A stretch of DNA of 51,616 nucleotides from Reclinomonas americana ATCC 50394 (Eukaryota), in the NCBI GenBank assembly GCA_048213135.1, contig PS015032.1, positions 277,409-329,024 on the forward strand, read 5' to 3'. This document shows positions 15,032 to 49,900 of the stretch, piece by piece (within the stretch, counting starts at the first letter, position 1; each line of letters opens with the position of its first letter). The notes beneath the pieces were generated by a model that searched no databases, had not been told where the DNA came from, and was given only the letters and a program-made list of their open reading frames with translations. The position numbers and the translations under genes were made by a program.

Positions 15032-16804
<1,773 letters not shown>

Positions 16805-16988: not shown

Positions 16989-19900
16989 CTAGTACCAACT
17001 TGTCGACGCGCCGTCATAGACAAAGAAGCCGGTCGTGTATGGCATTATTGTTGTGGTGGCGGTTCCGACAGTGACCACCATGTTGTTGGTCGACACGTTC
17101 TTGACCCACACGGTGAGGCCGTCGACTGCCGTCGTGATGGTAACGGCGACTGTCACAGGTGCCTGCAAACAAGAAAAGATGAGGCACAAGCGACGAGGTT
17201 GAAGGCAACGACGGTTAAAAAAAACTACGTACAACTCCTCCATTCGACTGCACATTGACAATTCAGGTGAGTAATTTTAAGGCATGCAAGTCAAGCAACA
17301 CAATCTCTTTCGCGCAACTTTGAGAATGACGATGGAGGGATCGGTGACTGTCTGCGATGCCATCATGTCGTCGATGATAATCACAGGCGTCAGCGAGAGG
17401 CCAGCTGTGCTCTTGAGTGTGCCAGCGACTTCAACATCGCCAGAAGTTGTCACTGAAGATCCAGTGATCGCGCCAGCCGAATCGATCGACGCCGCCGTCA
17501 ATNNNNNNNNNNNNNNNNNNNNNNNNNNNNNNNNNNNNNNNNNNNNNNNNNNNNNNNNNNNNNNNNNNNNNNNNNNNNNNNNNNNNNNNNNNNNNNNNNN
17601 NNNNNNNNNNNNNNNNNNNNNNNNNNNNNNNNNNNNNNNNNNNNNNNNNNNNNNNNNNNNNNNNNNNNNNNNNNNAAGCTGACACCCGTGATCGCACCAG
17701 CTGCGTTGATTGCAGCCGCTGTCAATGTCAGTGAATCTGCCGACACGGCGCCACTCGTGCTCACACTCAGGCCGTTAACAGCGCCACTGACACTGACACT
17801 GGCACCCGTGATCGCACCCGTCGCCACAATCACACCACCGCTGGTGATGGTTCCGCCGTTCAACGCGCCACTCGTGCTCACACTGCCGCCATTCACCGCT
17901 CCACTCACGCTCATACTCGTGCCGAGGATGGCACCGGCGGCGTCAATGGACGCGGCAGTCAGCGTGAGTGCACTGGCCGATACAGTCCCCGACGTGCTGA
18001 TGCCGGACGAGTTGATGGTGCCGCTAACACTGAGGCTGGTGCCCGTAATGGCACCGGCGGCGTTGATCGCTGCCGCTGTCAATGTCAGTGAATCGGCTGA
18101 AACCGCACCACTCGTGCTGACGCTCGCGCCATTCACGACGCCGCTGACGCTCATGCTGGTGCCGGTGATTGCACCGGCGGCGTTGATGGCGGCCGCCGTC
18201 AATGCAAGTGCGTTCGCAGACACCGTGCCGCTGGTGCTGACGCTCGATCCATTCACGACCCCACTGACGCTCAAACTGGTGCCAGTGATGGCACCACCAG
18301 AGTTGATCGCAGCAGCGGTGAGAGTCAACGAATCCGCGGACACTGCGCCACTGGTGCTGACACTGGAGCCGTTCACGACGCCGCTGACACTCAAGCTGGT
18401 GCCAGTAATCGCACCGGCCGCATTGATGGCGGCGGCGGTCAGCACGAGAGCATTGCCGGACACCGTGCCACTGGCGCTGACGCTTGAACTCAACACGGCG
18501 CCAGTGGTGGACAGCGTGTCGTCGCCGAACGAAAGCGTTCCTGCGCCGCTCCAGTCAGCAACAAGAGAAAATGGGGAGGCAGATCAGGACACCAGCAGAC
18601 CTCCCACAGCGTCCAGGTCGACAACAAACGGTGCTCCGGCCGCAAAGCGCAACTTGCTGCCGGCGGTGGTGCCAAAGGTCACCGCGTCGGTTACGGCGGC
18701 CAGTGAAGTAGTGGCCGCTGCACACCCCATACACACACACGGTCAGCATTGTTGAAAAGCAGGACGTATAGTGAATGAGCTCCACCACGCAACTAACGGT
18801 GGCCGTGGCGCCGTATACGCTAATGGTGGAAGTTGGAGTCGTGGAATCGCCAATTGTCAGCGTGGTCGCAGCGTCGAGAGTGAGCGAGGTGGCGCGGGCG
18901 ATGGTGGACGCCGCCTGCCCAACAGTGATGGCGGGTGCCGCCACGGCCACGGTATTCTGCAATGGCAATACGCAAGCTCAGTGGAAGGTTATCAACAAAA
19001 CACGACAAGGGCAGCGGCGACATACCGTGCCCAACAGCTGTGTGGCCTGCCCGCCGAGCCGCACGGTGGCGGTGGTGGCCACGGTGCCCACGCGGACCAA
19101 CGTACTGGCATCTGCAGCAGCGTCCACCGTGAGAATACGTGCGCGCATGCACATATACAAATTTCAAAAAGACGACGCACCGACAATGGTCGTCTGCTGT
19201 GCGGCATGAGCAGAATTGCCGATGGTGATGGTCGTGGCGGCCACTGTGCCCATGAGAATGTCGCCCGGAGCAGGCGCAGCGCCCGCATCAATGCTCCTGC
19301 GTGACGTAGCATCACAAGGCGTGAGGATACAACCGTGCGCCTGATTCACAGCACCGGACAAGGGGACGCAACACGTTGCCGCCGGTGCCAGTGGAATCTT
19401 GGCCGAGCAGTTGGGTCGCAGAACCGGCCGTCGCCGATCCGGTGGAGACGCGCTTCAATATGAAAGCCTTGGCTGTACTGTCTCCGAGTTGCACAATGGA
19501 CGAAGCGGCTCCCGCATCGAGACCTGCGCGAAAGCCAATCGTTAGACGGTGGGAGTGAGAGAGAGAGAAAGTCACCTCCACGCTCCTCACCAACAAGGAG
19601 CTGCAAGTCCGACTGCGACTGCACGCTAATGATACCACCTGTGGCACTCGTGGCGCTCTCGGAGCGAATGTTCGTTGTGCGCACATCGCCAACCAAGTGT
19701 GCTTCGCCGTTCACCTCCAACGTGCCCGACATGACAACCGCTCGTTGTGCCGCAATCTGCACCACGTCGTCAGCGTCAGCTGCGTCGACAAGCGTGCGCA
19801 TACATGCGGAGGTCTTGAAACTCACCGGGCTCTGCACCGTCAGACTCGCCGATGTATTGCCAATGACAACGGACTGAGCCGTCGCGCCCATGGTCACCGT

Positions 19901-22900
19901 CTGCGCAAACGGAAAACACATGGTGGGTAAACGGCAGAGCAAATTGTCGACAAGAGTGTGACGCAACGCTCGAAACAGCATCGAGAGTCAAAGCAGCATT
20001 GGTCGATGTGACGCTGACAGTCGAAGTGCCACTTACAGTCAACGCCGATGTGGCGGATATTGACAAGGTGCCATTCGACGACACGGTCGTGTCACCAACT
20101 TGAACAGAGAACTGCGCCAACAAGAGGCGCGTGTTAGTCACACGAAAATGTCTCAGGCGCACTGCGACCAGAAACAGCAAGCTCTCACCCGACCGCGCTG
20201 GCCAATGACAGCTCCCGTTGACACCTCAATGTCGCCATACAGCACGGTGCCCGTGCCAGCGCCATGAATTGCGCTCTCCAGACGAAGTGTTGGCGGCGGT
20301 ACGGTCGACGCCAAAGCAGACGCATGGCGGATGGTGAGCATAGCATTCGGCGCACCGATACGAAGAATGTTGTCCGAGCTACCGAGAGTCGCGGGCGACT
20401 GGAGTGTGACAGACGTGGCCGACAGCGTCATGGTGCTGGCGGCCAAGGCCAAAGTACCGCCCGTGTTGCCGACGGTTGTGGCCGACGTGGGTGCCGTTCC
20501 GAGGAACACGGCCCCGCCAGACGAAGTACCAGCACCACCAACCACATATACTCGGCCGCCGGTGACAGATCCGGTGGAATCTTGTCCGGCCAACGTGAAA
20601 TCGAATGGCGATCCGTTGACTCGTGGTCGTGTCAGCGTCAGATTCACACCAAGGCTGTCCACGTACACAATGCCATTGTTGGAGGCGAGCGAAAGCGATG
20701 TCGCGGCCGCAGATACAATCTGCGACACGGTAACCTTGCCGCCTATCGTCACGTCTTCGGCGACATTGAGCTGGCCAACATTGACGGTAAGCGATAACAG
20801 CATGACGATGGAGTAATTGCAATGCAGCAGGTGACACAACAGCTCCGAGCACGGAGGTGAGGATGCTTGCGCGAGAGATCGACAGTGACGTGAGAGCCGG
20901 GTCGGATGAGCCAACGGAGATGGTGGTGCCCTTGACAGTGACGGTGTCACCGGAAAGCTCCAACGCACTGCCCAAGACAGTGACCTGCGCACGAGCACAC
21001 ATGCGTTTGCGTGGTCAGCCAGGACGCTAATACGACAGGATGGGTAATTGCACAGATATACACACCGTTCCAGTGTTACGACCGCTCTCGCCGAGCTGCA
21101 AGGAAGCAGAGTTGCCCTGCCCTGGTGCAATCTTCAAGCTTGTGGCCGTGCTGCAGGGAGAGACGACACGTGAGTTGCATCGGTCATGATGCTGTGTTGT
21201 CGGGCACACAAATGAACACAAAACTTTCCGGCGCGATCAGGAGTGCGAATGGTAAGCAGCGCCTGGCCGCTGGGGTTCGTGTCGACGATAAGCGTCTGAG
21301 CTGGAGCAACGAGGCTCGACACCAGCGGCAACGGTCCGGTGAGTACAAGCGACCCCACCACCTGAAGAGTCAAGTGCAAGTCAACAATAGCTGTGACAAC
21401 AGCGTGGAAAGCACTCGCAGATTACCGTCAGACTTCCATTGGTCACCAAGCCACCGGAGACAACAGTCGTAGCAGCGGCCAGCGTGGTGGTACCAAAGCC
21501 GGCTCCGCTCTTGTGAATAGTCACCTGCCGACACAGCGAGAAGACAGTCAACGCCACGCAACCAATCGCCGACAATCGCAACCCCAATTGAGAAACGCAC
21601 GTTATTGGTGCTCACGGTTCCAAGAAGCAAGTCACCAGCCGCGCCGCTACTTGACGCGCCGCCATCCAGATACCTGCATTGTGCAACGGCCTAATTAGTG
21701 ACGCGTGCGCACCCTGGAGTCCAATGCATGGGGTCAAGCGCAGACGCAACAGAGGGCCACCATCGCCATTGAGTGCCGTTGACGCCTGGCCGGTCAGGTA
21801 CGTCGCATCGCCAGTACTCGCAGCTTGCACTGGACGCGACAGTGTGAATGCAGTGCCGGCAGCAGCCGTCAACGACAGCTACCAAGATTCAGTTAGCACA
21901 CAGAGTTACCGGCGACACAAAGTCAATGAATGTACGTCGCACCTGGCCGTTGGCGGGAGCGAGCGACAGAGCTCCACCGGCAGGCGACGCAAGGGTGGGA
22001 CAGGTCAGAGACGGTGCGATCACCGCGGCGGTGAATGTAGCCACTTCGTCAACAAGCAACTGCCGCAGCACAAGGCAAATCAAGTCAGCAAATCGGGACG
22101 GCGATGAACAAGCCTAACGAAATTGTTGGCAACTAACATTGCCCTTTACGCGAGTCGGCCGCCCGCTAGCCGCCAGCTGCACCTCAAACGCAGGATTCAC
22201 ACCGTCGGCCACGATGCTGATGTGCGAGCCCGACGAGTGCAACAGCAGCGACGACACGGCAGCCAACTCCACCGCTTGCGCTAGTGCCAGCACCTGCAGG
22301 CAGCAAGTGAGTCCCTCATTTTGCACACACACGTAATGAGTGCTTACAAGCGTTCTCACTTTTGCGCTCGTACGACTGGCTGCGCCGAGGATCAGAGTGC
22401 CGGGACCGGTCGTGCCGCTTCCTGGCTCCAGACTGAGATCGCCACCGACGCCAGTCGCCGACGGACGCTTGATGAAAAACGAAGAGCCCGGTGTGCTTGG
22501 TCCGAGGAGCAGGCCGTTCGTGCTCGGCGCCAACAACTCGCCAGTGCTCAGTGTGAGAGCAGCGCCGAGCACAGCTGTCGATTGGGTCTACGCATGCAAT
22601 GGTCAGCGCATGGGGAATAATGTCGACGATAGGCGTCGACAAACAGGTGACTCACCGACAGCGTGCCGACATTCACCGCACCGGTGGTCGACACTGTCGG
22701 CGTGCTGAAGGTCACCGTTGAGCCGGCATTCCCAATGACCACTGCGCCTCGCTGAGTGCCGATGCGCACTGTGCCATCGGCTCCGACGCCTACGCCGCCA
22801 TCCAGAACGCTGCAATGCGTGTGTGTGTGTGTGTGTGTTGCGCTGTGAATCATTCCGTGGCATGCACGTGCGGTCTGTGCCACTGTAGACGCAACATATG

Positions 22901-25900
22901 ACCGCCGACGCCCGTGCTCGACTGCTGGCCGGCAATTACCATGTTGGTGGCAGCCGTGCCCGAGGGACGCGAGAGCACAAAATCGCTTCCAGCAACGCCA
23001 AACTCCACGAGGTTGTTGAGACTCTTAACAGTGAGCGTGCCGAAAGAATTGGCAATGAACGGAGCCTCGACACCAGCGCCGGCGCTGAGAGGGACTGACG
23101 TCGACAGCGTTCCAGTGACTTGCAGATTTACGATGCTCACATTGCCGACGAACGACGAGGTGGCCGTCACCGTCGTCTGCGACAATCAAAAAAGGCAATG
23201 GTGAGCAGAAAAATAGACAAAATCCAGCCAACTACCCCCATCCTTTCGCATTCACCGTGCCGGCGATAGTCAGTGCACTTGATGAACTGCCAATGGTCAC
23301 CGCTCCACCAACGGCGGTGGTGAGAATACTAACGGTGCTGCCACCGATGAGGTTGGCAGTTGCTCCGAGCAAATTCAGGGTCGAGGTGCTCGCCAAGCCC
23401 ACATTCACGGGTCCGGTGGGTATTCCGAAGCTATCATTACCACCCCGCACGTACGCCGCACCACCGCTGCCAGCAAAACTCGACCCGCCACTAATGTACA
23501 CATCGCCACCGGCGGCGTTGTCGGTGGATGCTCCACCGAGTACCCAAAAGGCGCCAACGCCTGTTCCGCTGGGTGGCGATACTCGCTGCAGTATGAATGC
23601 AGAGGTGTCCTTCTCGCCAAAGTTCAAGCGCGACGACAGCGGATTGCCTGAGAGAGGCACCCGAAAAGCACGTCCGACGTCCAGTCGAATGTCGCCAAGT
23701 ACCGACAACACGGGGGCGTCGATTACGACACCACTCGGTAGCGCCTGACGGCCAATGACCACCTACACGGTCGCGAGACAAATGTGATTCACCGCGACTC
23801 ACGACAGCACTAGAACAGACAACAAAACCGACCTGACTGCCGGTCGCAGTGGCCAAGCGGACAACGCCTTCCGAGGTCACCGGTGTACCGGGGCCGCCGT
23901 CGATTAATCTGCACGCGCGCGCTCACTCATCAACAACTCTCTGCCTTTTTGCTCATGGCGCGTGATTGATGACCAACGCAACACATCACCGCCGACAGAG
24001 CCACCGGCTCCTTGCTGACCCACTATGTTCAGCGCCTGGCCTCCACCCACGACATTGCGCGGTCGGGTCAGCGTCAGTGCATTGGTGTTGTCGCCGAGTA
24101 GAATCGTGCCACTCGACGACGTCAACGAGAGCGAGTTGGCGACTCCCGGCAGCGATTGCACGCCGTTGGTCAGTATCGCCGCTCCGTTGAATTGCAGTCC
24201 AGTGTTGACCACGAGTTGGCCGCCGACTGTGACAGTGGCCGATGCCGTTCCCAACGTCACACTCGACGTCTGCACATCGACCAGAGTGCTGCCGGCGAGT
24301 CGTACCACGGACGCGGTGGCCAGCACTTCCGGAGTGCCCAAGGTGGCTGCGCCAAGCACCAGCCGTCCGTTGGCGCCACCGCCAGCGCCGCTACCGCCTT
24401 GCAAGCGGAGGTCACCACCGTTGACGGGCGCCACGCCGGTGGCTGCGGAGCGCGCAATGATAATTTGACTAGTGTTGCTCGATGGCTCCCCAATGAGGAG
24501 AGTCGCAGAGGCAGTCACCAGTGTGGCGCCTATTTCCAGCTGCAGATTGCTGGACACACGCACAGTCGGCGACAGAAGCCAGGCGGTGGAGCTAGTGGCC
24601 TTGCCAATGTAGACATCCGACGCGCGTGCGGAACCGATGCGCACGGCGCCCGTGGTGGTGGCGCCACTTCCAGCATCGAGATAGCTGCAGGCAATTCACA
24701 AGATCAATAACGCTGGTATGACCACGGAGAGAAAGAGAGAACGAGGAAAAAATGAACGCAACAGAGATCCCGTCGCAAAGCCTACGCTCATCTGATCCTG
24801 TCCCCAAATGTACAAATCCGCAGCCGCTCGCCCACTCACGGACGGTCTCTGCACGACAAAATCGACAGTGCTGCTGGTCGTGCCCAGCACCAATCGGCTA
24901 TTGGAAGGCGACAAAGCAAGACTACCGCCCAGAGTGGCCACGGAGCCCGTGGACACGACAACGTCGCTGTTCACAGTCAGCGACGAAGTGGTGACCATCT
25001 GTAGTGCGCGTCGAAAAGCAATCAGGCAACAAAAAACGAGAGGAGCACCACGGACTCGAATTGAGAGACACAAACACACCTGTGCAGCCACATTGACCGT
25101 GTTGCCGGAGCGTCCGAGTGCGATGTTACCCGACGTGCCTTGCACGCCAATAGCAATCGCCTGCGTGGCCTCGATTGCCGCCGATGCTGCGTCGATGCGC
25201 ACCGCACCCGTGTTGGAGGAGCCCAAGAACAGAGTGCCAGATGCCACAAACGCGCCTGTGCCGGGCGAGGGAGCGACGCGAATGCTGGCACCGGTTTGAT
25301 TCACGCCTGTGGGCGACGGTCGTGTGACTGTCAGCGTGGGTGCCGTGGTCAAATCACCCAGCTCAATCGAGTCGGCAGCAGACGACTGCATTGCCGTTCC
25401 CGAGAGGCGAAGCCGCGTGGTGAAGCGAGCCTCTCCATTCACCACCAGGTCTGTCGACGCCACCGCCAGCGTATCGAAAACGACTTGCGATGTGGTACTC
25501 GTGCCGAGACGCACGGATCCGGCGGTGCCGGTCCCAGAGCCACCGTTGAGAACTCTACATCAAAAGGGTGAGAGGAGCCCGGGATGCAGAACAAAGGGAG
25601 GGCCAACGCAACAAATCGCCACCACTCCCGCCCGTGTTACTCTGGCCAACGATCGTCAACGCGGTCGCGGCGGCGGCAGAGACGGACGGCCGCGTGAGCA
25701 GGACAGTGCCGGTGGCGCCACCAAACTCGAAACGGCCACTGGTGCTCGACAGCAATCGAAGACTGGTCGACCCAGCAGGCGCATCCACAAACGCCGTCGT
25801 CAGGCCGTTGGGTGTCAACAACTGCGCAGCCACAGTGAGTGTGTGCAATACTTGTGTGCGTGCAAACTGCCGCAGTGAGAACGCACATTGCCGACAATCG

Positions 25901-28900
25901 TGGCGGTGAGCGAAGCATTGCCGATACTGAGGGAGGTAGCCGTCGGCGCAATGTTGACTTGTGATTGCGAATCGATGGTGGTGGTGGAGACCGAGTCCAC
26001 AATGACCTGGGACGTAAGCGACGCATATTAGGTTCTCGTGTCTGTGTGACACGAATTCGGGAAACTGTTGCGTACCGCACTGGTGCTACTCCGTGTGCCG
26101 ATCAACAAGCGGCCGTGGACCGCCATGCCACCGTTCCCGCGACCTGCCACCAGCGCGAAATCGACTCCATTGGCTCCAGGCGCGGTAGCACTGGGCCGCG
26201 TCAGCGTAAACACCGACTGTGAGAGTGCGCCGAATGCCACCGAGCCGCCACCCGAGGTGACACTGGCCGTATCGACGGCCGCCGCAAACGTGGCCACTTG
26301 CGTGAACGTGGCGGTGTTGGAGAAGGTACTGGGCGCTTGCACTTGCAACATGCCGTTGGAGTCGCCAACAATGATCGGACCAGGCGTGTCCACGGCGATT
26401 CGCACAGCTCCGCGTGTGCTCAGACCAGTACCACCCTCCAGTCGCCTGCGTTACACTGTGAGCACGGGGAACTCAAAAAAAAAACACAGAGAAAAGAGGA
26501 GACGAGACGCAACAGGCTGCCTCCCACGGCGCCAGCGTTCGTATCTTGACCACGGACAATAAGGCTACTGCCATTGTCGCTGAGGGACACGACGGGCGAC
26601 CGCGATAATAAAAAGTCCTCTCCGTCGGAGCCCACATTCAGGCGATTGGTGGCCGGCGACAAAATCAAGTCCACATCCGTTGCCGTATTGATATTGCTGA
26701 CTTGCAGCGGTGACAGCACTTGCACCGAGCTGCTGGTGCCCGCGGACAATGTCAGTGGTCCGCTGGTGTTGACAAGAGACGCAACACCGGTGGCACCGCT
26801 CAATGCAAATTTGGCGACCGCGCTGACCGCACGGAGCTCCATTCGTGACTCGGCCACTGCGTGAGGAAGAAACAGATGTGTGAGAGAGAAAACCGACGGC
26901 GAGTGGGAAACTAAGTGACGCGGCACCCACCAGCCGAGGAGGTGCGTGCCAACAGGACCGCACTGTCGGAGACTGCGGAAACCTGAAGCTGGCGGTTCAC
27001 GCTGACTGACGAAAGGAACTCGAAGCCATTGTCAATGGAGGCCGGGAAGGAGAACACGAGGCCACCAGACGGATTATTAATGTCCAGTGACGTCGCGGAT
27101 GCCTTGACGGAGAATGCCTCCGAGCCGTCGGCGCGAACCGCCATTTGTAGTTCCGACGTGCGACTTTCGTTGCTGGAACCACTCGGGCGCACTTGGAAGA
27201 AGCGACCGTGAGCTTGCACAAAACCGGCAGTGCTGGGGGACGTGGGGTTGCCGGCCTGCAGATGCACATTACCGCCCCCGCGCCCGCCTGCAATCGCATC
27301 TGCAAACCCCCCCAAGAGAAGAAGAGAGGGAAGGAGAGTGTACATGCATCAGCAGCAGGTGGCTAATAATCACATCCTGGCAAAAAAATGCCAACAGACC
27401 ATCGCCGGCTCGCAGCGTGGCGTCACCGCCGGGGGACCCATCGCCGGCGACCAGCAGCAACGCACCGCCAGAGTACGTGGTACTCCCCTGCCCCCCGAAA
27501 AAACACAGGGAGAACAATGCATGAGTACCAAGAGATACCGCTCGACATGCACTCGCACCGACACACACCCTGGCACTCTGCCCGGTAATCATTGTGGTGC
27601 CGCCGTTACCGGCCACAGCGTCAAGACGCGTGATACTAAAGAGCGACTGTGGCGTGGAGTCACCAATCTCCAGTGAGCTGGTCCCTATTCTGGCGGTGAA
27701 TGCGGTAGTGTCCGTGGACGTTTGTTGGAGAAGGCTGACGAGAGAAGCGGAAGGGTGAGCAGAGTTTTGCCTAGAAGCTCACGACAACGTGTTTCGCACC
27801 TTCGCCGACGAGCCGAGGGCATTGTTTGGGCGCTGCGTGCGGAAGCCGACGGAGTGAATTGGAGAAGAGATATTGTGCCACGTGAGAACTCCAACGTGTC
27901 TGAATCGGTGGACTTGAGCGTGAACCCGGCGCTGGCACTCGCTCCGCCGCCGGCAAACACCAGACGCGCCGCTTGACTCGACGACAATGTTAATTGCGAG
28001 TCGCCGACAGTCGACTGCACAACCACCGCCGGCGCACTGACAGTGTTGGTGGCCACTAGCGTGGTCGTGGTGGCCGCTCCTGCCAAGCAACGAGAAAATG
28101 AGCTGCATGTACCGCGCGCGCACACACAGGAAAGCATCAGCACGAACCGGCCACATTGAGAGTGGTGACCGAGGTCGGCGACCGCGCGATGAGAAACATG
28201 ACAATGCCAAACAGGATCCACATCAGCAGCACGTGCGCCACCACTGTGGTCGACAGGATCACATCTTGCCAGTATGCGCTGCGCACGCCCATGGACAGAA
28301 GCAGACGGCGCCACCAAGAAGGCCGCGGCTTGACTGCCTCTTCCGCCGCTGCGCCAGGAGGAGTGTTGGCCAGCAGAGCTGCGAGCAACTGCTGCTGCCG
28401 GAGGCGCGTCAAGCGCGGATCCATCATCTCCACGTCGGTGACATGCGGCAGCGCATCGAGCGGCATGTCCAGCTGACCCGGATCCATGGGCCGCGGCATT
28501 CCGCCCCCACGCATCGGCGGAACCGAGGAGGCAGACACACTTGTTGACGAGGACACAGACGAGCGCTCATCGCCGGCGACCTCCGCCTCCCCCTCAAAGT
28601 CATCCTCGTTGCCGACAACCACCTTGCGCGGCAGCCGACGTCCCGTGGACGACTCGCTCGACAGCGACATGGCGCTCGCCGACTGCGACGTTCCGGTCGA
28701 CTGCGCATCCGCCACCGACGAGCGACGCAGGGCGGGCGCTGGCGAGCGAGTCTCTCCCGTCAGCATCAGCGGTGTCCAATTTACAGCGCCTGGCAACATT
28801 GGCTGTGGTGGTGTCAAGGCAACCGCAGTAGGCCATGCGGGTGAGAAGCGCGCGGCGATATTCGCGGCGGCGTGCATGGCCTGTGCGGGAGGCAGTGGAG

Positions 28901-29217
28901 GAGGAGGTGGTGGAGGAGGATGCGGCGGATGAGATGATAATGAAGAGATGAAGGTGTCATGGTCATGCTCCTGGGCGGCGCTTGGTCCTCCTGCTAGTGA
29001 GGAGATGGGCGCGGGGAGTGGCTTGAGGCGCCACACTCGACGCGAGTCAATCACTGCGGGTGATTGTGCCACTGCGGCGAACAATACACGCATGTGAGTG
29101 AGAGTCGCGTGCGCGCGAGGGAGAGTGAGATTGCGTGTGACACAGAGCTGTGTGAGTATGTGTGCGTGGGAGAGAGAAGACGCAACACAGCGACGGTGAC
29201 GACTGCGACGACGCCAT
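16989..29217 (-). CDS. Giant (~3000 aa, ~37 introns, hand estimate) type II membrane protein B: Pro/Ser-rich N-terminus, one TM helix, modular T/S/G/A/V-rich fibre-like ectodomain
   Basis: ATG 29217 (aagATGG; MASSQSSPSL|LAQSP). TM segment VVAHVLLMWILFGIVMFLIA at ~28250-28185. Successive minus-strand ORFs join in frame through short GT-AG introns to the stop at 16989 (...GFFVYDGASTSWY*). Confidence 0.75.
17440..18480 (-). repeat. Coding tandem repeat, 120 bp / 40 aa unit (GAVSADSLTLTAAAINAAGAITGTSLSVSGVVNGSSVSTS), at least 7 copies plus a gap
   Basis: GCACC..(G/A)TTGAT-like anchors at 17931, 18051, 18171, 18291 and 18411, with further copies at ~17813 and ~17693; N gap 17503-17676 lies inside the array. 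Confidence 0.9.
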
Positions 29218-29339
29218 CTTTTCTCTTGTCTAGATTTAATTCGTCGTGGTCTCGTCGGTTGGAGGATGAACGATTGGTCGATTGGTTGACATCGTGCATT
29301 GCGACGAGTCTCATTTCTCCCCTCTCTCCCTCCTCTCCT

Positions 29340-32300
29340 CTAAATATACAAGATGGTGATGTAGGCGGTGCCGATAAAGTTCGTCCCCAGCCCCTTGGAC
29401 CACACCGAGATAAAGGTGGAGTCGACGGAGGCCGTCAGAATCGGCAGGCCGTCCAGCCAGCCGCCGCCGACGGAGAAGGGCGGCGAGAAGTTTGTCAACT
29501 CGGTGCTGGATTCAATGGTGCCGCCGTACAGCGTGCACTGCATGACGGCCACAAGGATGAGTAGCAGCAACAACAACGACGACAACCAAGTGCACTGTCA
29601 TTCCCCAGACGAAACTTGCACCGAAATGACTCGCTGGTAGAACGTGGCACCCATATTGTGTGCCACCTGCTGCGGTAATGAGTCGGGGAAGAACAGGCGG
29701 CTGAAGCGAGCCATCAGCGTGCGGAAGCGCGGTGCACTGACGTCGGCACCGGGCTGGAAACCGACTTGCATCGACAGATTGTTGCCGATGTTGGTGGTGG
29801 TCGAGACGATGCTGATGCTGCTGGTTGTGGTGAGGCTGATGGTGGAGGTGCCGGTGGTGACGTTGATGTGGCGCACATAGACACTGCCACCCGTGCCTGG
29901 TCCGTTGCCGCCTTGCAACACGAAATTGCCGCTGCTGGCCGCAAACACGGTGCCGCCGGTGCCGGACGATATGGTCACTGCCGAGCTCGTGCCGCCCACA
30001 ATAACAATGCCCTGCGGGGTGGCGTTGGTGGCGGCCGCACGTGTGAGCGTAAACGCACTATCGGCCTGTCCCAGCTGCAGGTTGGCCGTGTAGATCGAGA
30101 GCGTTCTCGTGCCGGTGGAGATGGTGACGGGCGATGTCAGTGTGCCGACGTACACCGTGCCGCGACCTGGCGCACGCGCAATGTGAGTGAGTGGCGCTGT
30201 TCATACGCAAGTGAGGTGGGGATTCATGGTGGCGCAACTGCTGCTGCCGGCACCGCCGTCAAAGTACACGTCGCCGCCGTTGCCGGTGCCGGTGACTTGT
30301 TGGCCTGCGATTGTCAGGTCGTAGAGGGTGGCGGTCGACGCATTGTTCTGCGTGACGAACAGATCGGTGGCCGACGTGCTCGACAGCGTCAGATCGCCGT
30401 ACACTCGAAAAGAGCCGCGTGCGGTGACCGTGGCACTGCAAAAAGCAAAGGCAAACACGGCGGTGAGGAGCAAGCAGACCAACGCAATTGCAGGATGTGC
30501 TGAAGACGCACGATGTGTTGCCGAGAATGACCGAGTTGGAGCGCGTGCCGACAAACATGTTACCGTTCTGTGTGGTGCCGCTGCCGACGTCGAGAACAAT
30601 GCTGCCGCCGCCGGGAGTGGTGCTCGAATTGGCACCCCGCAGGGCAAGCAGACGCGCTGGTGTGCCCGTGTATCCACTGGGCACGGTTCGCAGCACAGAG
30701 GTGCCGACACTGAGGAGGTTGGTCATGTTGAAGGCGTTGACGGTGGCCGTGCAGAGCGACGTGGCGAACAGTAGGCCAGCCCCCGAAGAGGAAACATCGT
30801 TGAAGGTGGCGGTATTCGTGGCGCCGAACAACGCCGTGCTGGCCGCTGTCGAGGTTATGGTGGTGGCCGAGAGGCCGGCAGTGGTGGCCGGCGACAGCAA
30901 AAAGGTGGTCGGGGCGGTGATGGTGACGGCGGGCGCCACGACCTGGAACAAGGTGGTGGCATTGGCCGTGACGATGCCCGACGCCTGGAACGTGGCGGTG
31001 GCACCCTGCACGCTCACCAGCGGCGTCGGACACGCGCAGTTGGTGACGGGGGCGGAGCTGCAGCGCAAGTGTCCGTTGCCGGTCAGCGACAGATCGCCGT
31101 TGGACGTGGCGGCCGACACGGTCAAGCGCGCCGTCTGCGAGAGAATCAGAGCAACATTGCTCGACTCCACCAGCGTCGACGTGGAGCTGGTGCTGAGGTT
31201 GCGTCCGGCGCTCATGGACAGCACCGTGGCCGTGGATGTGCCGCTGAGCGTAATGTACTTGCTCGTGAACGAGGCGGTGCCGGTGGCCGCCGCCGACAGC
31301 GTGACGGTTCCGGTGGAGGCCGTGGATGAGACCACCAGCGCCGATTCGCCGGTGAGCGCCGCACTCTGTGCGCCCACCAGCTGCAGTGTGGTGGCGGCAG
31401 TGACCACCAGTCCGTTGCCGCCGGTGAGAAGCGCCTGGCCCGAACCACCAGTGGTGCTGGCCGTAATGGTCGCGATGCTGCGTACTTCGGCGACCGACGA
31501 GAGCAGAATGTCGCGCGAGGCCTGCACGTTGGCCGTCGCCGAGGCCGTGATGGTGAACGGGTACGCACTGGTAATACTCACGGTGCCGCCGGTGAGCGTA
31601 AGTGGTTGCGTGGCGTTGATGGTAAGGCGCTCGTTCGCCGTTTGCGTGGCGGCGGCTGTCGAGGTCGCCGACAGAGTCGGCGCCGTCAGCGAGGTCTGCT
31701 GCACGCCACGCAAGTTGACCGTGGCCGAACTCGTCACGTCGAGCTGCGTGCTGGGCGTCACCTGCACCGTCTGGCCGGACGCGCTCACCGCCGTGGTGCC
31801 AGTGACCGTCGCTGTGCCGGCATTGGTGGCCGACGTGCTGCCAATGTACACGAAACCGCCGCTGCTCAGGTTCTGGTTGCCGCCGGTGTTTTGCAGGAGT
31901 ACGCTGTTGAGCGAGCGCACAGTGATAAAGTCGCCCAGTATGGAGGCGTCGATGGAGGCCGCAGCGTCGACTGTGGCCGCAGACTGCGAAATGGTCGACG
32001 AGGTGACGTTGTAGACGCCGTTCACCATGCTTGCACCGATGGTGGCCACGGTCGAAGCCGAAAACGACAGCTGGTTCGCGTCAATGGCGGACGACGATCC
32101 GGCACCACCACCGCCACCGCCACCCGACGGGGCGAATGTAATGGTCGGACTGGTCATCGACAGAGAGGTGGAGGCGTCCATGGTGACATCGACACCCGAC
32201 AGCGTCATGGTGTCGACGGTGGGCGACACGACGACGGACGGCGACGAGATGGTGGTGCTGGTGGTGCCGGCCACATTCACCAGTGCCATCGACGACAGTT

Positions 32301-35300
32301 GCAAGGCGGTGGCGTTCAGGTTGACCTGCGTGCCGCCCAAGCGCACCTCGGTGCCCGCCGTGCCGGTGATGATGGGCGAGGTGAGCTGCAGCAGTTGCTG
32401 CGACTGCAATACGAGCTGGTTGCCGGCCGAAATGTTAAAGGCGGTGCTCGGCGAGATGGTCAGGGTGGTGGCCGAGATGTCGACAGGGTCGCCATTGACC
32501 GTCACCTGAGGCAGCAGCAAAGAAGGAGAGTCAGTGGTGGTGTTTGCTGGTTTCTCCGATCAAGACAAGCGGAGCCATACCGACGTGGCGGCCGACAGGT
32601 CGGTCAGTCCCGTACTGTTGATGTTGATGTTGGGAGCGGTCACAGTGGCGCCTGTCGAGCCGCCGAGCACCAGTGGCAGTGCCGTGTTCACCGTCACCAC
32701 TGAATTGTTCAGGCCGAGTTGAATGTCGTGAGCGGCCAACTGCATGTGCATCAAGAAGGCGAGTGGGCGGCAATGCAAGTGGAGAGGGGGAGGATCGCGC
32801 AAACCTGTACGACTCCTGTTGGTGCGCCGATACTGATGCTGGACTGCGTGCCGACTCGCAAATCGCCCGACGAACCCACGCCGACCATGCTGACCGGACT
32901 GAGGTCGGTGGCACCGGTAAACGACTGGCCGGCATCCACGTACAGGTTGCCACCGGTGCCACCCAGGCTGCGCTGACCGACCACCGCCAGCGGAAACGAC
33001 GCATTGGCACAGGTGACGGACGAAGCAGTGGTGGGAGTGGCTGCAGGAAGCAAAGCAGTGAGGACGACACGACAAAGACGTAGCACGACAGTGGAGGAGT
33101 GTACCGTCCATCTGCAACTGCGAGTGCACCACCCAGTTCGACGCCGCCACGTTCAGCGCCGAGCTCGGATTGCCGAGAGTGATGACATTGGAGACTTGCG
33201 TGCCGATCCACACGTCGCCGGCCGACGTAGTACCGGCACCGCCTTCGAGTTGCACGCTGCCGCCGGTGCCCATGGGAGAGCTCTGTCCGTTGAAGGCAAT
33301 GGTCTGCGGTGCTCCAGTGGGGGCCGGCGCTCGTGTAAGGTTGGGCATGGAGGTGGCGGTGCCGAGGCGAATATTTCCCTCGGCGTACAAGTTGCCGCCG
33401 ATGGCTGTCGGCGCGGTGCTGCTGCCGCTCACCACGCCAGCAGTGGTCGCCTCTGCGATCAAGAGCTGGGCATTGGCACCACTGCGCACAACGAGGTCTT
33501 GATCACTCGACAGGCCCGGTGTGTCAAAGAGCAGTTCGTCGATCTGCAAGCGCACGGGGACGTGTCAGCTCACCGCACACGGAGAAAAAGGACACTCACA
33601 AAGGCGCACCTGCATCGGCTTGAGAAACGTGGCCGGACCGCCGACCTCGATGGTGCCAGTGGAGCTGCCGAGATTGACGTGCGACACCGACGCACCAAGC
33701 TCCACCGCGTCCGCCGACGACACCGAGAGCGCCACCGCCGTACCGCTGGCCATTTCCAGCGAGTTCGCAGCCAGCCGCAGACTCACCGATCCGGTCGTGT
33801 GCTCACCACTGTGGTCGTGAGGGGTGAGCAAGTACAAACACACACAAGAAGCACTCGCTCAAAGTCCACGCACGTCGTCAGGGATCCACCGACGGCATTC
33901 AGTGAGCTACCATCGATAATGGCAGTGCCGAGACGTGCGCCGCTGCTGATAATCATGGTGCCGGTGACGTAGACCTCGCCCGACGTGAAGCCGGCGGGGA
34001 TGCCGGTGAAGTTGCGCGGGAGGTTGGTGCCGACATTTGTGGTCTGCACGATCGTCGCCGTGTTGTTGACCCGAATGTGCGGAAAGACGTTCAGATTGCG
34101 ATCCACGTCGGGCAACACACTCTGCAACCCGATCACCATGCCCAGTGAGAACAGCACAGCATACAGCAGCCAATACGGGAAGGACAGAAACCGGTGCGCA
34201 CCACTGCCGATGTCTGGTTTGTGTGTTGCAGAGTTTGGAACGAGTGCAAATCGAGAGCTCCCTTGACGGTGAGTGCCTTGGCACCGAGCATGGCCGTCAT
34301 GAGCCACACCAGTCCGATGGTCAAGATAATCACGGCGATCACGACGATGATCCAGCCACAGCAGTCGAGACGACGGCGCACAACATTCATTTCGTCCACC
34401 GTCTCCTGTGTCAGCGAGAACCACTTGTCTGCGGACGGAATAAGTACGAAGTTGGTGGTGAGCGCAGTTGAGATGACGTCAGCCACACAGAGAGGATAGA
34501 GGTGACGCGTACCCTTGACCGCAATCGGTGACTCCTCCGTGATGATTTCGACTGGTTTCTCCATGGGAGCTGGTGTCACGCGCCGCGGAAACAAAAGTGG
34601 CGAAGCCTGTGCAAGCGATGCTGTGTGGCAGTGGAGGAGGAGAGGAGGTGAGTAACACGGAAAGACAGGCCGTGGACTTTTCCACGCAACGCAAGGAAAT
34701 CTGGTGGCGACGGCCGCTCTTGTTGGTGGTCGGAAACGCTGCTGTGCGCGTCTTGTCGGGCGCCATGACGTTGGAGGCTAGATAGAGGAAATGATGGTGG
34801 TGAGCTTCTCGACAAGGTGGGAGCGAGGATAAAGCGACAATGAGGAAACCTTCGCCGTCGCGCTCCAGCTTTTCCAGCAGCAAGTTTCGCGTTCCACGCG
34901 CGTGGTTGCCAAAGATCTCCACACTGCGATTGCTCGAGTCGGGTTCCGTGAGCTGGTGTGTCGTCGAGGTGGTCGTTGCTCTGCGCCCATGCACCACTCA
35001 ACATGAGAAGGAATCAACAGCGAGGTCATCATGAGGAACAAGAACAGCACGCAACGTTTCGTCGTCGCTGGGATCCGGCTGTGAGATGCTGCGCCGCTGC
35101 GGCTCGGCAGACGGCAGAATGGTTCGCTGCTGCTGCTGCTGCGGTGACTGCGGTGTGTGCAGCGCGATAGATTCAGGCAGCGGCACGGCCAGCGGCAGCG
35201 CATGCGCACGCGCATTGCGCGGCACATTCGCCGTCGGTGGCACAGGCACCAGGGGCGGCAGAGGTCGATTGGGTGGTGAAAACACCGACGGCGACGGTGG

Positions 35301-35699
35301 GCTGCGTGGATGATTGCCTGCCCTTGTCCGCGTGGTAGCCGCCGCCGCTGCTGCCGAGCCCTGCACCGAGCGGCCTCCCGCGGGGCTGTTCGGCAGCACC
35401 AACAGCTGCGATGGAATGGCTGCCAGTGGCGACGAGGCATCCATGTTGGACAGGAAGGAGTGTCGCTCGGCACTGGCACTGGGTGGGCGCGACGTGCGCA
35501 TGGTGAGGGGCGTGACACTCGACGAGGCCGCCAGACTGTTGCTGGCCGGTGACAGCGGCAACGCTGTGTTGACGGCAATGGCCAGCGGTGGTGGTGGGCG
35601 CCGCGGTGGCGCCTGCAACCTCAAGTCCAGCGGTGGCGGTGGGTTTGGAAGCGGCGCCAGCGGTGGCGGGGGCACACCGTTGGCCGCTCGTCGACTCAT
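29340..35699 (-). CDS. Large (~1750 aa, ~14 introns, hand estimate) type II membrane protein A, same architecture as protein B
   Basis: ATG 35699 and a Pro-rich N-terminus. In-frame splices DDET|ATTT, DGE|ASN, QISL|PSLAQ and IAVK|DKW. RRRLDCCG precedes TM segment WIIVVIAVIILTIGLVWLMTAML (~34360-34290). A T/S/G-rich ectodomain ends ...GTNFIGTAYITILYI*. Confidence 0.75.
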
Positions 35700-37651: not shown

Positions 37652-39418
37652 ATGAGCAGACGCCTGTTCATGCTTTTGTGTCGGGCCAACAGCAACAACA
37701 GCAGTCCGACAGTCGAGATGCGTCGATTACCGCGCGTTCTGGTGCTCGGACCACCAGGTGTGCAGCAGCTGGCAACAAGGGCGATTTCCGTCTCGATTGT
37801 CACTGTTGCAGACTGATCTTTCGTGAACAGGCGTTGGCAAGGGGAGCTACAGTCAGCGACTTGAGCGCTACTATCAGGTGCCACGGCTGTCGGTTGGCGA
37901 AGTCGTGCGCGAGGAGATTGCCGCGCGGACCAAGGTACGACAGCAGTTGTCGGAAAAAAGAAACGACAGGTCAGTGTTGCTCACTGTTAATGTCGCCTCG
38001 CAGTTGGGGCAGGCGTTGGAGCGGCATGCGGCGGCCGGTGCTCTGTGCCCCGACAGCATCATCTGTGACATGGTCGGCGAGCGATTGGAGCAGGCGCTGG
38101 GCACGCGCGGTGGTTTCGGTGCGTACTGCGCGCTGTGTCGAATGGGAGATGAGATCACCAATACGTCTCGCGTGGGGAGGCAGTGCTCGACGGCTTTGGC
38201 AGGAGTCTGCGACAGGCCACGTTCCTCACCGACTTTCTCCACCAGCGACCTCAGCATCAGCTGTTGCGTCTGTGGCGAGGGAAGGGTTGGAGAAATCCGA
38301 CATAGACTCACCGCACGAGACGACGCAGCACGTTCGCGTTGAGTCTGTGGCAGCCGGAGAGCATTCTCGTGCAAAAGCTGACCGGCCGACGGCACTGTCG
38401 ACACTGCGGTGCCAACTACAATGTCACCGGCATTGTGGACATTGGGCTCACGCTGCCGCCGCGACTGCCGAGCAAGAGCGATGAGTGCGACCATTGTGGG
38501 AAGCGAGCAGACGAGAAGGGCGATTGGATGGCGCGAGTTTCGTGCGGCACCGAGCGCCATAGTCTCGTGCACACACACCTTATATCGTACGGTGTGCACA
38601 CACAGAGACCCGACGATGTCGAGGAGGTCGTTCGTGCACGACTGCGACTGTACCACGAGCAAACAAAGCCGGCCATCAAGCATTTCGAGTCGCTGGGCCA
38701 CCTTCGCCGCATCCAAGTGGTGTGTATGGGGGCCGGGGAACACAGAGGGTGTGTGTCATCTGTGTCAGTGTCACTCACCTATTCCCCCACATCTGGCACA
38801 GCGCTTCAGCATGGTGGTGAGTGTGAAGAAAAGAGAAGAGAAGAGAAGAGAGGAGAAGAGAAGGGAAGGGGAGGGAAGGGAAGGGAAGGGAAGGGAAGAG
38901 AAGAGAAGAGAAGAGAAGAGAAGAGAAGGGCAGAGCAGAGCAGAGCAGAGCAGAACAGAACAGAGAAGAGCAGAACAGAAAAGAGAAGAGCAAGGCAGGG
39001 CAGGGAAGAGAAGAGCAAGCAAAGCAGAGCAAGGCAGAGCGGATCAGAGCAGAGCATAGCCAGGCAGAGCATAGCAGAGCAAGGCAGAGCACAGCATAGC
39101 AGAGAAGGGAAATGCAGAGTAGAACAGAGCAGAGCACAGCATAGCAGAGAAGATAAGAGCAGAGCAGAACAGAGCACAGCACAGCACAGCACAGGCACAG
39201 CAGCACACCAGAGGCGGACAGTGTCTCATCCTGCAAACGGCTCGTCACCTGTGTGCTTCCCCTGCTGCAGGCCTGCTCACGAGAGACTCGCTCGCGAACA
39301 CATCCACATCATCTCGGCGTCATCGAGAGCGCCTCGTGCGTGGCAGGCGCCTCGTGGGGACGAGATTTTGTGTGATTGCACACCACACGCACCTCGCCCT
39401 CGACAACAAGACCTGTAA
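37652..39418 (+). CDS. Adenylate kinase (long form, Cys4 LID), possibly organellar; last exon uncertain
   Basis: P-loop GPP|GVGKGSY, GF|VLDGFGRS, LTGRRHCRHCGANYN...CDHCG and RPDD.EEVVRARLRLY; start is ATG 37652 or 37718. Confidence 0.88.
38826..39200. repeat. Pentanucleotide satellite drifting (AGAAG)n to (GGAAG)n to (AGAGC)n to (ACAGC)n, intronic
   Basis: Visible 5-nt periodicity. Confidence 0.9.
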
Positions 39419-40887: not shown

Positions 40888-42341
40888 ATGCAAGCGAGTG
40901 GAGACGACCGCCTCGCCGCCTCCAAGGTGATCAACGTGCAGGAGTACGAGGAGCGGGCACGACAAGTGCTGCCTCAGATGGTTTTTGACTATTACGCGTT
41001 GCGTCTCGTACCTTGCATGCATTCTTCCGCATGCACGCTCTCATTGTTGAACAAAGCACTGGCGCCGATGACTTGCACACGTTGCGTGACAATCGTGCAG
41101 CGTTTGCTCGCATTGCAGTGGTGCCTCGCATGCTGCGCGATGTGTCCACGATTGATACGCGGACCACTGTTCTTGGCAAGGTTGCAACAAGACCACTCAC
41201 TGCTCACTCATCGCTCTTCTCCTGCTCACTTTGTGCATCGTGCAGTCGATCGCATCACCGATCCTGATTGCACCAATGGCCATGCAGAGGCTAGCGCACG
41301 TGGAAGGCGAGCTGGCGATGGCCAAGGCCGCGGAGAAGCGGGGTGCGGGCTTTGTGCTGAGCTCGTTTGCCACGTCGAGCGTGGAGCAGGTGCAGGAGGC
41401 GGCGCCTGGTGCTGTCAAGTGGCTGCAGTTGTATGTGCTGCGCGATCGGGCGCTGACGGCGGCGCTTGTGCGGCGTGCCGAGGTCGCCGGTTACTCGGCG
41501 TTGTGTGTCACGGTTGATGCGCCGAAGACCGGCAAGCGCGAGGCCGACTTGCGCAACGGCTTTCATCTGTTGCGTGTGCTGTTCTTGATAATGGCCGGAA
41601 AGCAGCGGTGCTCACTTTGTGTGTGTGTGTTTGCAGACCACCGGATATCACGGTGTGCATTCTGCCTGTCCTCCGTGCTCTCTCCGATTTGCTCACCTTC
41701 TCTTTGCCTGTCGTGCGCAGCTCGCCAACTTTCCCCTGGTCTGTCACCCGATCGCGTTCCCCTCTTGCACTGTGGGTTCATTCTTCCTCTCGCAGACACT
41801 CTCGTCGAACGTGCCGGAGGGAGTGAGCGCCCTGTCGCAGTTCATGGGAGCGCAGATGGACGCCAGTCTCACGTGGGACGACATTCGGTGGCTGGTGGAG
41901 TCGACGACGTTGCCGGTGCTAGTGAAGGGCGTGTTGCACCCCGCCGACGCCGGACTCGCCGTGCATTGCGGCTGTCGCGGGGTGGTGGTCAGCAACCACG
42001 GTGGTCGCCAGCTGGATGGCGCCATTAGTGCGCTGGACGCCCTGCCGGCCATTGTGACCGCCACCAGTGGCCACGACTGCGAGGTGTATATTGATGGCGG
42101 CATTCGTCGCGGCACCGACATTCTAAAGGCGCTGGCCATGGGTGCCCGTGCCGTGCTCGTCGGTCGCCCGCTCCTGTGGGCACTGGCCGTGCACGGACAA
42201 GTCGGTGTGGAGCGCGCACTGCAAATCCTCGAGGATGAGCTGCAGCTGGCCATGGCGCTCTCCGGTGTGCGCACGATCGAGCAAGCCGCCACCGACGTGC
42301 TGCTGACGCCCGCAGGCCAACCGCTGCGGGCGAAACTGTAA
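40888..42341 (+). CDS. Peroxisomal (S)-2-hydroxy-acid/glycolate oxidase (FMN-dependent)
   Basis: FDYYA|TGADD, PRMLRDVS, WLQLYV.RDR, VTVDAP, LPVLVKG, VSNHGGRQLD and DGGIRRGTDI.KALA.GA; C-terminal PTS1 AKL*. Confidence 0.95.
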
Positions 42342-49170: not shown

Positions 49171-49321
49171 TGCGGGTGTGCAAAATTGAACTGTGCAGGA
49201 CGGAGATAGGCGAGGAGGATGGGAGGGGTGCAGCCTTGTTGGTGTGATGGGCGTGGGTGTGTGATGAAGGAGCTGCGGGCGATTGACGTCGACGTCCACC
49301 AGCGACGTCGAGGAAGAAGCG

Positions 49322-49900
49322 TCACGACGTCGAACGCGTGCGAAACAGCGTGACGACGAGCACTGACATGCGGGGTGGGAGTCGAAAAGCAATGTTGCAG
49401 CAACGGCGGCGAGAGGGGTTGCACTGCTGCCTGATCCACATCGTACTCCAGATCCACAGCTTCGCCAACACGTCCACGAGAACCTCGCTCAGAAACTCCC
49501 ATGCAGCGTGCTGATCGCCCTTTCTGTTGCAGCTCGTCGAGGTACGGTGCACGGAACCCTCGACACCGGCAGTGATAACTCGAGACCGCACCTGGCACAT
49601 GTGCTTGCAAAGTGTGATGCTTTCCCCTGAGAAGACAATTGCAAAGCGAGAAGTTGCCATCGTTCCTCGCAGCGATCTCCACAAACCATGCACTTGCGAT
49701 GCCTTCCTGACAGCCTGCAAGACAGGGAGCGCAGCGACACACAGAGCTCCCACAACCAACGTCGTTGCAGCGATCGCAAGCCCTGCACCTGTGATTCTAT
49801 CCACCGAAGAGATATGCAACGAAGAGCAGCACTCGGCAGTGTCCCTGCCGTCACCAAGATCCTCGCACCGATCTCTGCACATCCATTGACCTGCCGAACA
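49322..49900 (-). CDS. Possible small hypothetical membrane protein
   Basis: ORF with hydrophobic GLAIAATTLVVGALCVAALPVL segment lying between SMIM7-like and NOMO; exon structure unresolved. Confidence 0.25.
   Translation of the reverse strand, partial: CSAGQWMCRDRCEDLGDGRDTAECCSSLHISSVDRITGAGLAIAATTLVVGALCVAALPVLQAVRKASQVHGLWRSLRGTMATSRFAIVFSGESITLCKHMCQVRSRVITAGVEGSVHRTSTSCNRKGDQHAAWEFLSEVLVDVLAKLWIWSTMWIRQQCNPSRRRCCNIAFRLPPRMSVLVVTLFRTRSTS

Follow-up and report, generated by a model that had tools for sequence, protein, structure and literature searches.

Two tandem giant genes of Reclinomonas americana encode repeat-rich, putatively type II membrane proteins with a predicted three-chain beta-helix fold

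Fibres in which three chains wind together into a beta-helix are characteristic of phages and of the spikes of bacterial secretion systems. The triple-stranded beta-helix spikes used here as a structural class for comparison are T4 gp5, VgrG of the type VI secretion system, the contractile-injection-system spike and the HylP1 fibre of a streptococcal phage. Such an architecture appears to be rare at the eukaryotic cell surface, and the one example that we found comes from the dystrophin-glycoprotein complex of animals, in the beta/gamma/delta sarcoglycan core, whose subunits are type II transmembrane (TM) proteins folding together as a triple beta-helix (PMC13294987). Here we describe two adjacent genes, A and B, encoded on the minus strand at positions 16989-35699 of a 51,616-nt stretch of DNA from Reclinomonas americana ATCC 50394 (assembly GCA_048213135.1, contig PS015032.1, positions 277,409 to 329,024), the whole of which is called the window below. 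We consider it somewhat probable that A and B are resident type II proteins whose ectodomains form intertwined three-chain beta-helix fibres at the cell surface.

The bounds of the region are exact on the minus strand, with an ATG at 35699 and a stop codon ending at 16989, and two gene models with matching layout were recovered between them, in line with a first-pass annotation that had proposed two head-to-tail genes of one shared architecture. Gene A (29340-35699) comprises about 17 exons and encodes ~1,700-1,800 amino acids (aa), with its stop codon at 29340-29342. Gene B (16989-29093) begins at its first in-frame ATG (29093) and has 38 exons and ~3,136 codons, including a gap of 173 N in the assembly. 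The coding regions are 246 nt apart (29094-29339, from the stop of A to the first ATG of B), not ~120 bp as had been estimated. Across the region the minus-strand open frames have a GC content at third codon positions of 0.73-0.83 and T/S/A/G/V-rich translations, and are broken every few hundred bases; none of the open reading frames (ORFs) of the region is a long, prokaryote-style ORF covering A or B. Exons were modelled with our own dynamic-programming exon chainer, which uses codon log-odds, GT..AG introns, splice-site matrices and an intron-length prior; the chainer was retrained on its own output, and the 5′ end of A was re-run with a less biased codon model. This gave 46 confident predicted introns of 58-100 nt, with donors that are mostly GTGCGT or GTTGCGT and acceptors that are mostly GCAG. 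In the parsimonious model, exon 1 of A (35056-35699) is an open frame from the ATG at 35699 and encodes a Pro-rich N-terminus without a signal peptide; with the less biased codon model it is followed by introns of 75, 72, 70 and 84 nt, giving a protein of ~1,800 aa. The first five exons of A are uncertain. A single gene running from A through into B was also considered and set aside as less likely, because it would require a 17-nt exon flanked by introns of 278 and 316 nt, against introns of 58-100 nt elsewhere.

The feature that unites the two proteins is a 63-residue module with the consensus NGSLELGSATSAFTLTRPSAVAGTGAALLIAGQASTGGVVGGSLLLDGGSGTTAEGAVRLGTA. A hidden Markov model (HMM) was iterated from one copy and, with a domain threshold of E<0.01 for counting, detected 14 copies in B and six in A, two of the latter overlapping. 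The shared pattern that had been read from the sequence at first pass agrees with this consensus; the copy numbers given with it were about 16 in B and about four in A. A six-frame scan of the whole window with the HMM, which is independent of splicing, placed every match on the minus strand, from 19366 to 33513, and many of the matches broke at one profile position. In A, the six copies are spread over 29871-33513, those contained in single exons being located at 33196-33378, 30541-30723 and 29871-30089. In B, the module-bearing fibre region extends over 19242-27682, with copies starting 92-298 aa apart; 10 of the 14 units span 92-145 aa, that is, the conserved 63 residues and then a variable run of short strand-like segments. 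In the spliced model, an intron is present at HMM position 44, in phase 2, in six of the 14 modules of B. These six introns were predicted independently of one another and each restores the conserved motif. The identical position and phase imply that the repeats multiplied after the intron had been gained.

Two further observations bear on the residence of the genes. BLASTP alignments of database homologues cross six predicted exon junctions without a gap (at aa 1394 and 1460 of A, and at aa 960, 1197, 2357 and 2405 of B), and introns of ~60 nt also occur in the nearby FMN-dehydrogenase gene, which was mapped by way of a homologue, the single donor that was read (GTTGCGT) being as in A and B. 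Given the module-position introns, the junction-crossing alignments and this shared intron type, A and B are resident nuclear eukaryotic genes and not contamination or a recent insertion.

A profile (A1) made from nine single-exon module units was scored against 1.84 billion representative proteins and matched 79 of them at E≤1e-3, 17 at E≤1e-10 and two at E≤1e-30. Since the profile matches unrelated database proteins down to E 1.4e-41, the module is beyond chance, and A and B, with significant matches and several copies each, belong to the family that it defines. The 79 relatives carry 1-24 modules each. Hydrophobic residues and glycines are conserved position by position across distant organisms, and no database protein exceeds 47% identity to A or B in any alignment. 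A word-based search with a second alignment (A2) returned four matches, two of which were already known. Thirty of the 79 relatives were looked up; eight had a source label, six of them naming an organism. The labelled relatives include five proteins of Kipferlia bialata (GIQ84642.1, GIQ80334.1, GIQ80846.1, GIQ81530.1 and GIQ86732.1), one of Balamuthia mandrillaris (KAL6072603.1) and one unnamed EukProt entry, and the remaining ones looked up are from metagenomes or metatranscriptomes. The Kipferlia and Balamuthia proteins, uncharacterised and overlooked at first pass, are true homologues with 6-17 modules each. In Kipferlia GIQ80334.1 a cytoplasmic N-terminal stretch is followed by a TM anchor, as in A and B, whereas the homologues are more charged than the window proteins (Asp, Glu, Lys and Arg together 10-18% versus 6.6-8.5%). 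They explain nothing of function, since all of them are annotated as 'hypothetical protein'. The Balamuthia protein (P0031), which has six modules, also contains a Bactofilin beta-helix domain (residues 1452-1541, E 2e-28).

Another class of relatives, 450-860 aa in length, has signal peptides; their contigs are approximately of transcript length and their clusters have members from a marine metatranscriptome catalogue, and they are probably secreted proteins of marine protists. Within this class P0009, P0012, P0016, P0023 and P0030 have in common an N-terminal motif that immediately follows the signal peptide, together with a C-terminal 'QCGHGL' motif that contains Cys. By contrast, A and B have neither of these motifs. 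The module is not recognised by Pfam, NCBIfam or PHROGs, no family of which scored above threshold on any tested exon of the window, and Pfam found nothing on 20 exon pieces of A and B, which agrees with the earlier statement that no characterised eukaryotic family can be recognised. Literature searches, with supplementary files outside their range, found no description of the module family.

Outside the module-bearing part, A and B have the same layout. Both N-termini are rich in Pro (20% over the first 233 codons of A, 35699-34998, and 13.8% over the 283 residues that lead up to the TM helix in B) and lack an N-terminal hydrophobic signal. A hydropathy scan found one strong hydrophobic 19-mer per protein, scoring 2.96 in A and 2.75 in B, the next best 19-mers reaching 1.58 and 1.83. 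In A the segment lies in the exon at 34202-34428, where RRR is followed by IIVVIAVIILTIGLVWLMT; in B it lies in exon 1 (28148-29093), a continuous ORF that encodes a Pro-rich, acidic and putatively cytoplasmic region, WWRR and, further on, the helix VVAHVLLMWILFGIVMFLI, and that matches no Pfam family at threshold. Because Arg residues precede the sole TM helix (positive-inside rule) and there is no signal peptide, A and B are likely to be type II single-pass membrane proteins with the N-terminus in the cytoplasm. The ectodomain of A (1,430 aa) contains 15.6% Thr, 13.3% Ser, 11.2% Gly and 11.1% Ala, with 6.6% Asp, Glu, Lys and Arg, 3.5% Pro, six Cys and 22 N-x-S/T sequons; that of B (2,768 aa) contains 8.5% Asp, Glu, Lys and Arg, 3.2% Pro, one Cys and 19 sequons. 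Composition and hydropathy thus bear out what had been read from the sequence at first pass, namely Pro-rich N-termini without a signal peptide, basic residues before a single TM helix, and very long, Cys-poor and charge-poor T/S/G/A/V ectodomains.

The evidence that bears most directly on the fold was obtained with exon 26 of B (20189-20770, 194 aa). Predicted as a monomer by AlphaFold2 from a 27-row alignment, this piece had a predicted local distance difference test score (pLDDT) of 64 overall and 74-81 across the module, but almost no secondary structure according to DSSP, a combination that fits strands pairing only between chains. When three copies were folded together, all three runs reached an interface score (ipSAE) of 0.93, against 0.00 for the highest of three controls; the pLDDT was 90, the partner pLDDT was at least 89, and at least 97% of the contacts agreed between runs. 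The ~1,300 contacts run along residues 2-183 with inter-chain offsets of +14 to +16, such as 45 with 59, 60 with 76 and 76 with 90. Among the contacts listed, residues 45-46 of a chain pair with 59-61 of its neighbour, 60 with 75-77, 74-76 with 88-90, and 89-90 with 99-100. The paired stretches are consecutive conserved strands of the module (LTLTR, FTLAG, RVYVV, AVFLG and TTVG). That is, each strand pairs with the next strand of a neighbouring chain, which is the geometry of a three-chain beta-helix, and exon 26 would therefore show, by prediction only, the inter-chain strand pairing along the axis that marks the triple-stranded beta-helix class. The mark applied to the trimer was calibrated on solved proteins, where 21 of 30 structures determined as pairs of a single chain type and none of 23 determined as single chains attained it (17 of 29 and 0 of 30, respectively, among eukaryotes). 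The trimeric beta-helix fibre-like fold suggested at first pass is thus supported by the homotrimer prediction, and also by the occurrence of the module upstream of a Peptidase_S74 domain in two metagenome proteins (see below).

Each chain could instead fold on its own into a single-chain parallel beta-helix or solenoid, in the manner of autotransporter passengers, HMW1 or pectate-lyase-like adhesins, and act as a monomeric surface adhesin. This alternative is unlikely: the monomer model is almost without intrachain strands despite the pLDDT of 74-81 across the module, the presence of three copies lifts the pLDDT to 90 with an ipSAE far above that of the controls, and every fold match is below noise level. 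Foldseek gave no match in the PDB, and the best one in BFVD had an E-value of 2.1. The top rows of a VIA-align comparison, all below noise level, are triple beta-helix spikes and fibres: the contractile-injection-system spike 9gtr_q (3.9), the VgrG 6sjl_A (3.0), the sarcoglycan 9c3c_g (3.0), the T4 gp5 helix 6p20_C (2.8) and HylP1 2c3f (2.4).

Alternatively, the ectodomains could be mucin-like, that is, mostly disordered, O-glycosylated Ser/Thr-rich chains of a glycocalyx in which the module is a mere compositional pattern. Ser and Thr do make up 27-29% of the ectodomains, and exon 12, folded from its single sequence, reached a pLDDT of only 41, in itself an uninformative result. Exon 14 of A (30512-32505), which encodes 664 aa rich in Thr and Ser and carries a single module, at the end, also speaks for disordered chains in having no database relative; it has no Pfam match, and a word-based search against longer proteins found nothing, which by the nature of the method is weak evidence. 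Yet Pro accounts for merely 3.2-3.5% of the ectodomains, the positions of the module are individually conserved between distant organisms, down to E 1.4e-41, hydrophobic residues alternate with period 2, and the trimer model is confident. Neither protein consists of the Pro/Thr/Ser repeats without conserved hydrophobic positions that characterise mucins, and we regard such a nature as improbable. Hydrophobic residues in exon 14 recur at lags of 8, 16 and 24 (z 4.1 at lag 8), and this 8-residue period is reminiscent of the octapeptide repeat in the helix of T4 gp5. Among named Atlas entries, the one nearest to exon 14 is a DUF2345/Sarcoglycan cluster (score 0.84), which is a lead only.

The proposed fibres might also be hetero-oligomers in which A and B co-assemble instead of forming separate homotrimers, much as the paralogous beta-, gamma- and delta-sarcoglycans do. 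The two genes lie next to each other on one strand and have a common architecture, and the sarcoglycans, as described in the source cited above, likewise combine a type II anchor with co-folding into a triple beta-helix; this resemblance keeps a heteromer in consideration. However, the two ectodomains differ twofold in length (1,430 versus 2,768 aa) and can hardly be aligned, and a trimer of B alone is predicted with high confidence, so that co-assembly seems doubtful at best. That the proteins are components of extrusomes or of other ejectable prey-capture organelles, as first proposed, is very improbable, for although the prediction is fibre-like and the named homologues come from protists that are phagotrophic, a simple type II TM anchor points to a protein of the membrane surface and no extrusome marker was found in the window.

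Several points weigh against three-chain fibres made by A and B. The trimer is the predictor's own confidence and not a measurement, it covers a single 194-aa exon out of ~4,200 ectodomain residues, and the calibration was done on two-copy jobs while exon 26 was folded in three copies. Furthermore, of the seven eukaryotic pairs for which no older relative had been solved, only one attained the mark, so that a pass may reflect structures memorised by the predictor. Sequence searches of the PDB with profiles A1 and A2 gave a best E-value of 0.14. The exon models of both genes are ab initio predictions, above all at the 5′ end of A. The best pairwise BLASTP match between A and B has an E-value of only 0.011, and the two are not recent duplicates; they have a common architecture, and the module is shared at profile level only. 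As for function, adhesion, the binding of particles or prey, or a protective coat may be envisaged, from the form of the fibre and the origin of the homologues in phagotrophic protists alone.

If A and B do form three-chain beta-helix fibres, the following arrangement could be proposed. The Pro-rich N-terminus would lie in the cytoplasm, where it could dock cytoplasmic partners, and one TM helix would anchor each chain, three chains being anchored together. Each long ectodomain would then intertwine with two further chains into a stiff fibre. Within it, a module would supply four to six short strands at steps of ~14-15 residues (e.g. F-T-L-T-R, L-x-I-x-G-Q, G-G-D-L-x-L and G-x-V-x-I-G), each of which would pair with the next strand of the neighbouring chain, with glycines at the corners and the alternating hydrophobic residues pointing inward. 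This geometry would explain the conserved pattern of the module. If each step of ~14.5 residues rises by one 4.8-Å rung, arithmetic gives ectodomain lengths of ~47 nm for A and ~92 nm for B; the fibres may project from the cell surface by tens of nm and by ~100 nm at most. The C-terminus would be farthest from the membrane, like the free tip of a phage fibre, and in B would be made up of 40-aa repeats and a small tip domain.

The C-terminal part of B is indeed built differently from the module-bearing region. Exon 35 (17747-18548) encodes at least seven tandem 40-aa repeats, GAITGTSLSVSGVVNGSSVSTSGAVSADSLTLTAAAINAA, found by Tandem Repeats Finder with a period of 120 nt and in exact protein register; the hydrophobic autocorrelation of this exon has a z of 12.8 at lag 40. 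The repeats are interrupted by the assembly gap (17503-17675), across which the copy number and the reading frame are not fixed by the sequence. Beyond it, three exons (16989-17501) encode the last repeat and a non-repetitive domain of ~95 aa that ends in FVYDGASTSWY. Toward the C-terminus, the order is therefore 40-aa repeats, gap and non-repetitive tip. The C-terminal exons of B have no Pfam or PHROG match, and neither A nor B resembles its homologues in the C-terminal region.

The link between the module and phage fibres was followed through the metagenome relatives. In two of these, P0041 and P0045, one canonical module directly precedes Peptidase_S74 (E ~2e-12), and P0041 also matches PHROG tail-fibre families. 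The metagenome locus of P0045 and a related locus are arrays of giant bacterial-type surface-protein genes with FG-GAP, VWA, fn3, PKD, BACON and cohesin domains, and these S74-bearing loci look like a bacterial surface-protein island rather than phage genes. The loci of the S74-bearing module proteins (L001, 1-15070, and L002, 1-23912) consist of uninterrupted giant ORFs of 1,320-2,346 aa on the same strand, and also include cadherin-like and thermolysin domains. A tblastn search of 50,697 phage genomes left both exon 26 (no match at E≤1) and P0056 unmatched, and P0041 gave matches in 240 phage records through its S74 part alone. Scans of IMG/VR with P0041, P0004 and P0005, and of prokaryote genomes with P0005 and P0013, all of them multi-module or S74 proteins, found no relatives, these scans being able to detect close relatives only. 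PHROGs gave no family for five of six exons of the window and one marginal match (E 0.0086) for the exon with the 40-aa repeats, none at E 0.001. A and B themselves lack Peptidase_S74 (PF13884), as judged from Pfam searches of the C-terminal exons, those of B being searched one by one (three exons), and of 18 other exon pieces; they thus have neither the intramolecular chaperone of phage tail fibres and tailspikes nor a phage family match. A phage-fibre-like character of the N-termini of P0005 and P0056 was considered and dropped, as no search supported it. A phage origin, such as the domesticated fibre of the first reading might imply, is not supported: the module did not turn up in the phage genomes and IMG/VR as searched, and its S74-bearing relatives stand among bacterial-type surface-protein genes. 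The tail-fibre link of the module is real but indirect, through proteins shared with the S74 chaperone domain, and these searches did not find the module in any known phage.

The surroundings of A and B are also eukaryotic, with flanking ORFs whose matches are to adenylate kinase, NOMO1-like and FMN-dependent dehydrogenase domains. Directly downstream of B, an ORF on the plus strand (15456-16625) has a weak match to SF-assemblin/beta-giardin (E 5.5e-6), below the Pfam cut-off, which may point to a flagellate. On the other side are an ORF with a partial adenylate-kinase match (38306-39418, plus strand), an FMN-dependent alpha-hydroxy-acid oxidase gene with at least three short introns (40933-42269, plus strand; best database identity 61%, to metagenome proteins) and a NOMO1-like first beta-sandwich domain (48475-49488, minus strand; E 1.1e-13); the adenylate-kinase and NOMO1-like ORFs are housekeeping neighbours of an ordinary eukaryotic kind. 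All ten runs of N (20-348 nt, between 1304 and 17675) fall in the first 18 kb of the window, and one of them breaks the repeat region of B. The GC content is also lower in these first 18 kb (0.46-0.58 versus ~0.60).

Taken more broadly, an unnamed module is found again and again in giant proteins from no fewer than three distant lineages of protists, and abundant transcripts of marine origin encode it as well. It is conceivable, although we would call it speculative, that phagotrophic protists of several supergroups (Metamonada, Amoebozoa, the organism of the window and marine plankton) share a phage-fibre-like three-chain beta-helix family whose members act as surface 'tail fibres' that recognise bacterial prey or other particles, those of the window being held in the plasma membrane by the N-terminus with the C-terminal tip free, and that the module was exchanged with the prokaryote and phage world, in which it precedes the S74 chaperone, and then expanded in eukaryotes by duplication of an intron-containing unit. 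If the fold and the surface location proposed here are true, the family would represent a new class of surface appendages in protists, with adhesion or the recognition of prey as candidate roles, as well as a clean case of repeat expansion via a duplicated intron-containing unit. Should the trimer be wrong, the family would still constitute a large set of uncharacterised surface proteins.

Compared with phage tail fibres and tailspikes, A and B would share the intertwined trimer, by prediction, and the N-terminal attachment with a free C-terminal tip, as far as the proposed topology goes; moreover, their module stands directly upstream of Peptidase_S74 in P0041 and P0045. They differ from those fibres that end in a C-terminal S74 domain in having neither that domain nor a PHROG family at E 0.001. 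The closest characterised eukaryotic analogue, which the first-pass annotation missed, is provided by the sarcoglycans. Like them, A and B would have a type II TM helix followed by an extracellular three-chain beta-helix, the topology being read from the sequence and the trimer from prediction. No match to Sarcoglycan_1 (PF04790) was obtained with Pfam on the 20 exon pieces of A and B, and the resemblance is one of working and not of membership. Sarcoglycans are proteins of ~300 aa. Whereas the sarcoglycan core is a heterotrimer of short paralogues with disulfide-bonded C-terminal loops, A and B have ectodomains of 1,430 and 2,768 aa that are almost without Cys and that repeat a module which Pfam does not recognise.

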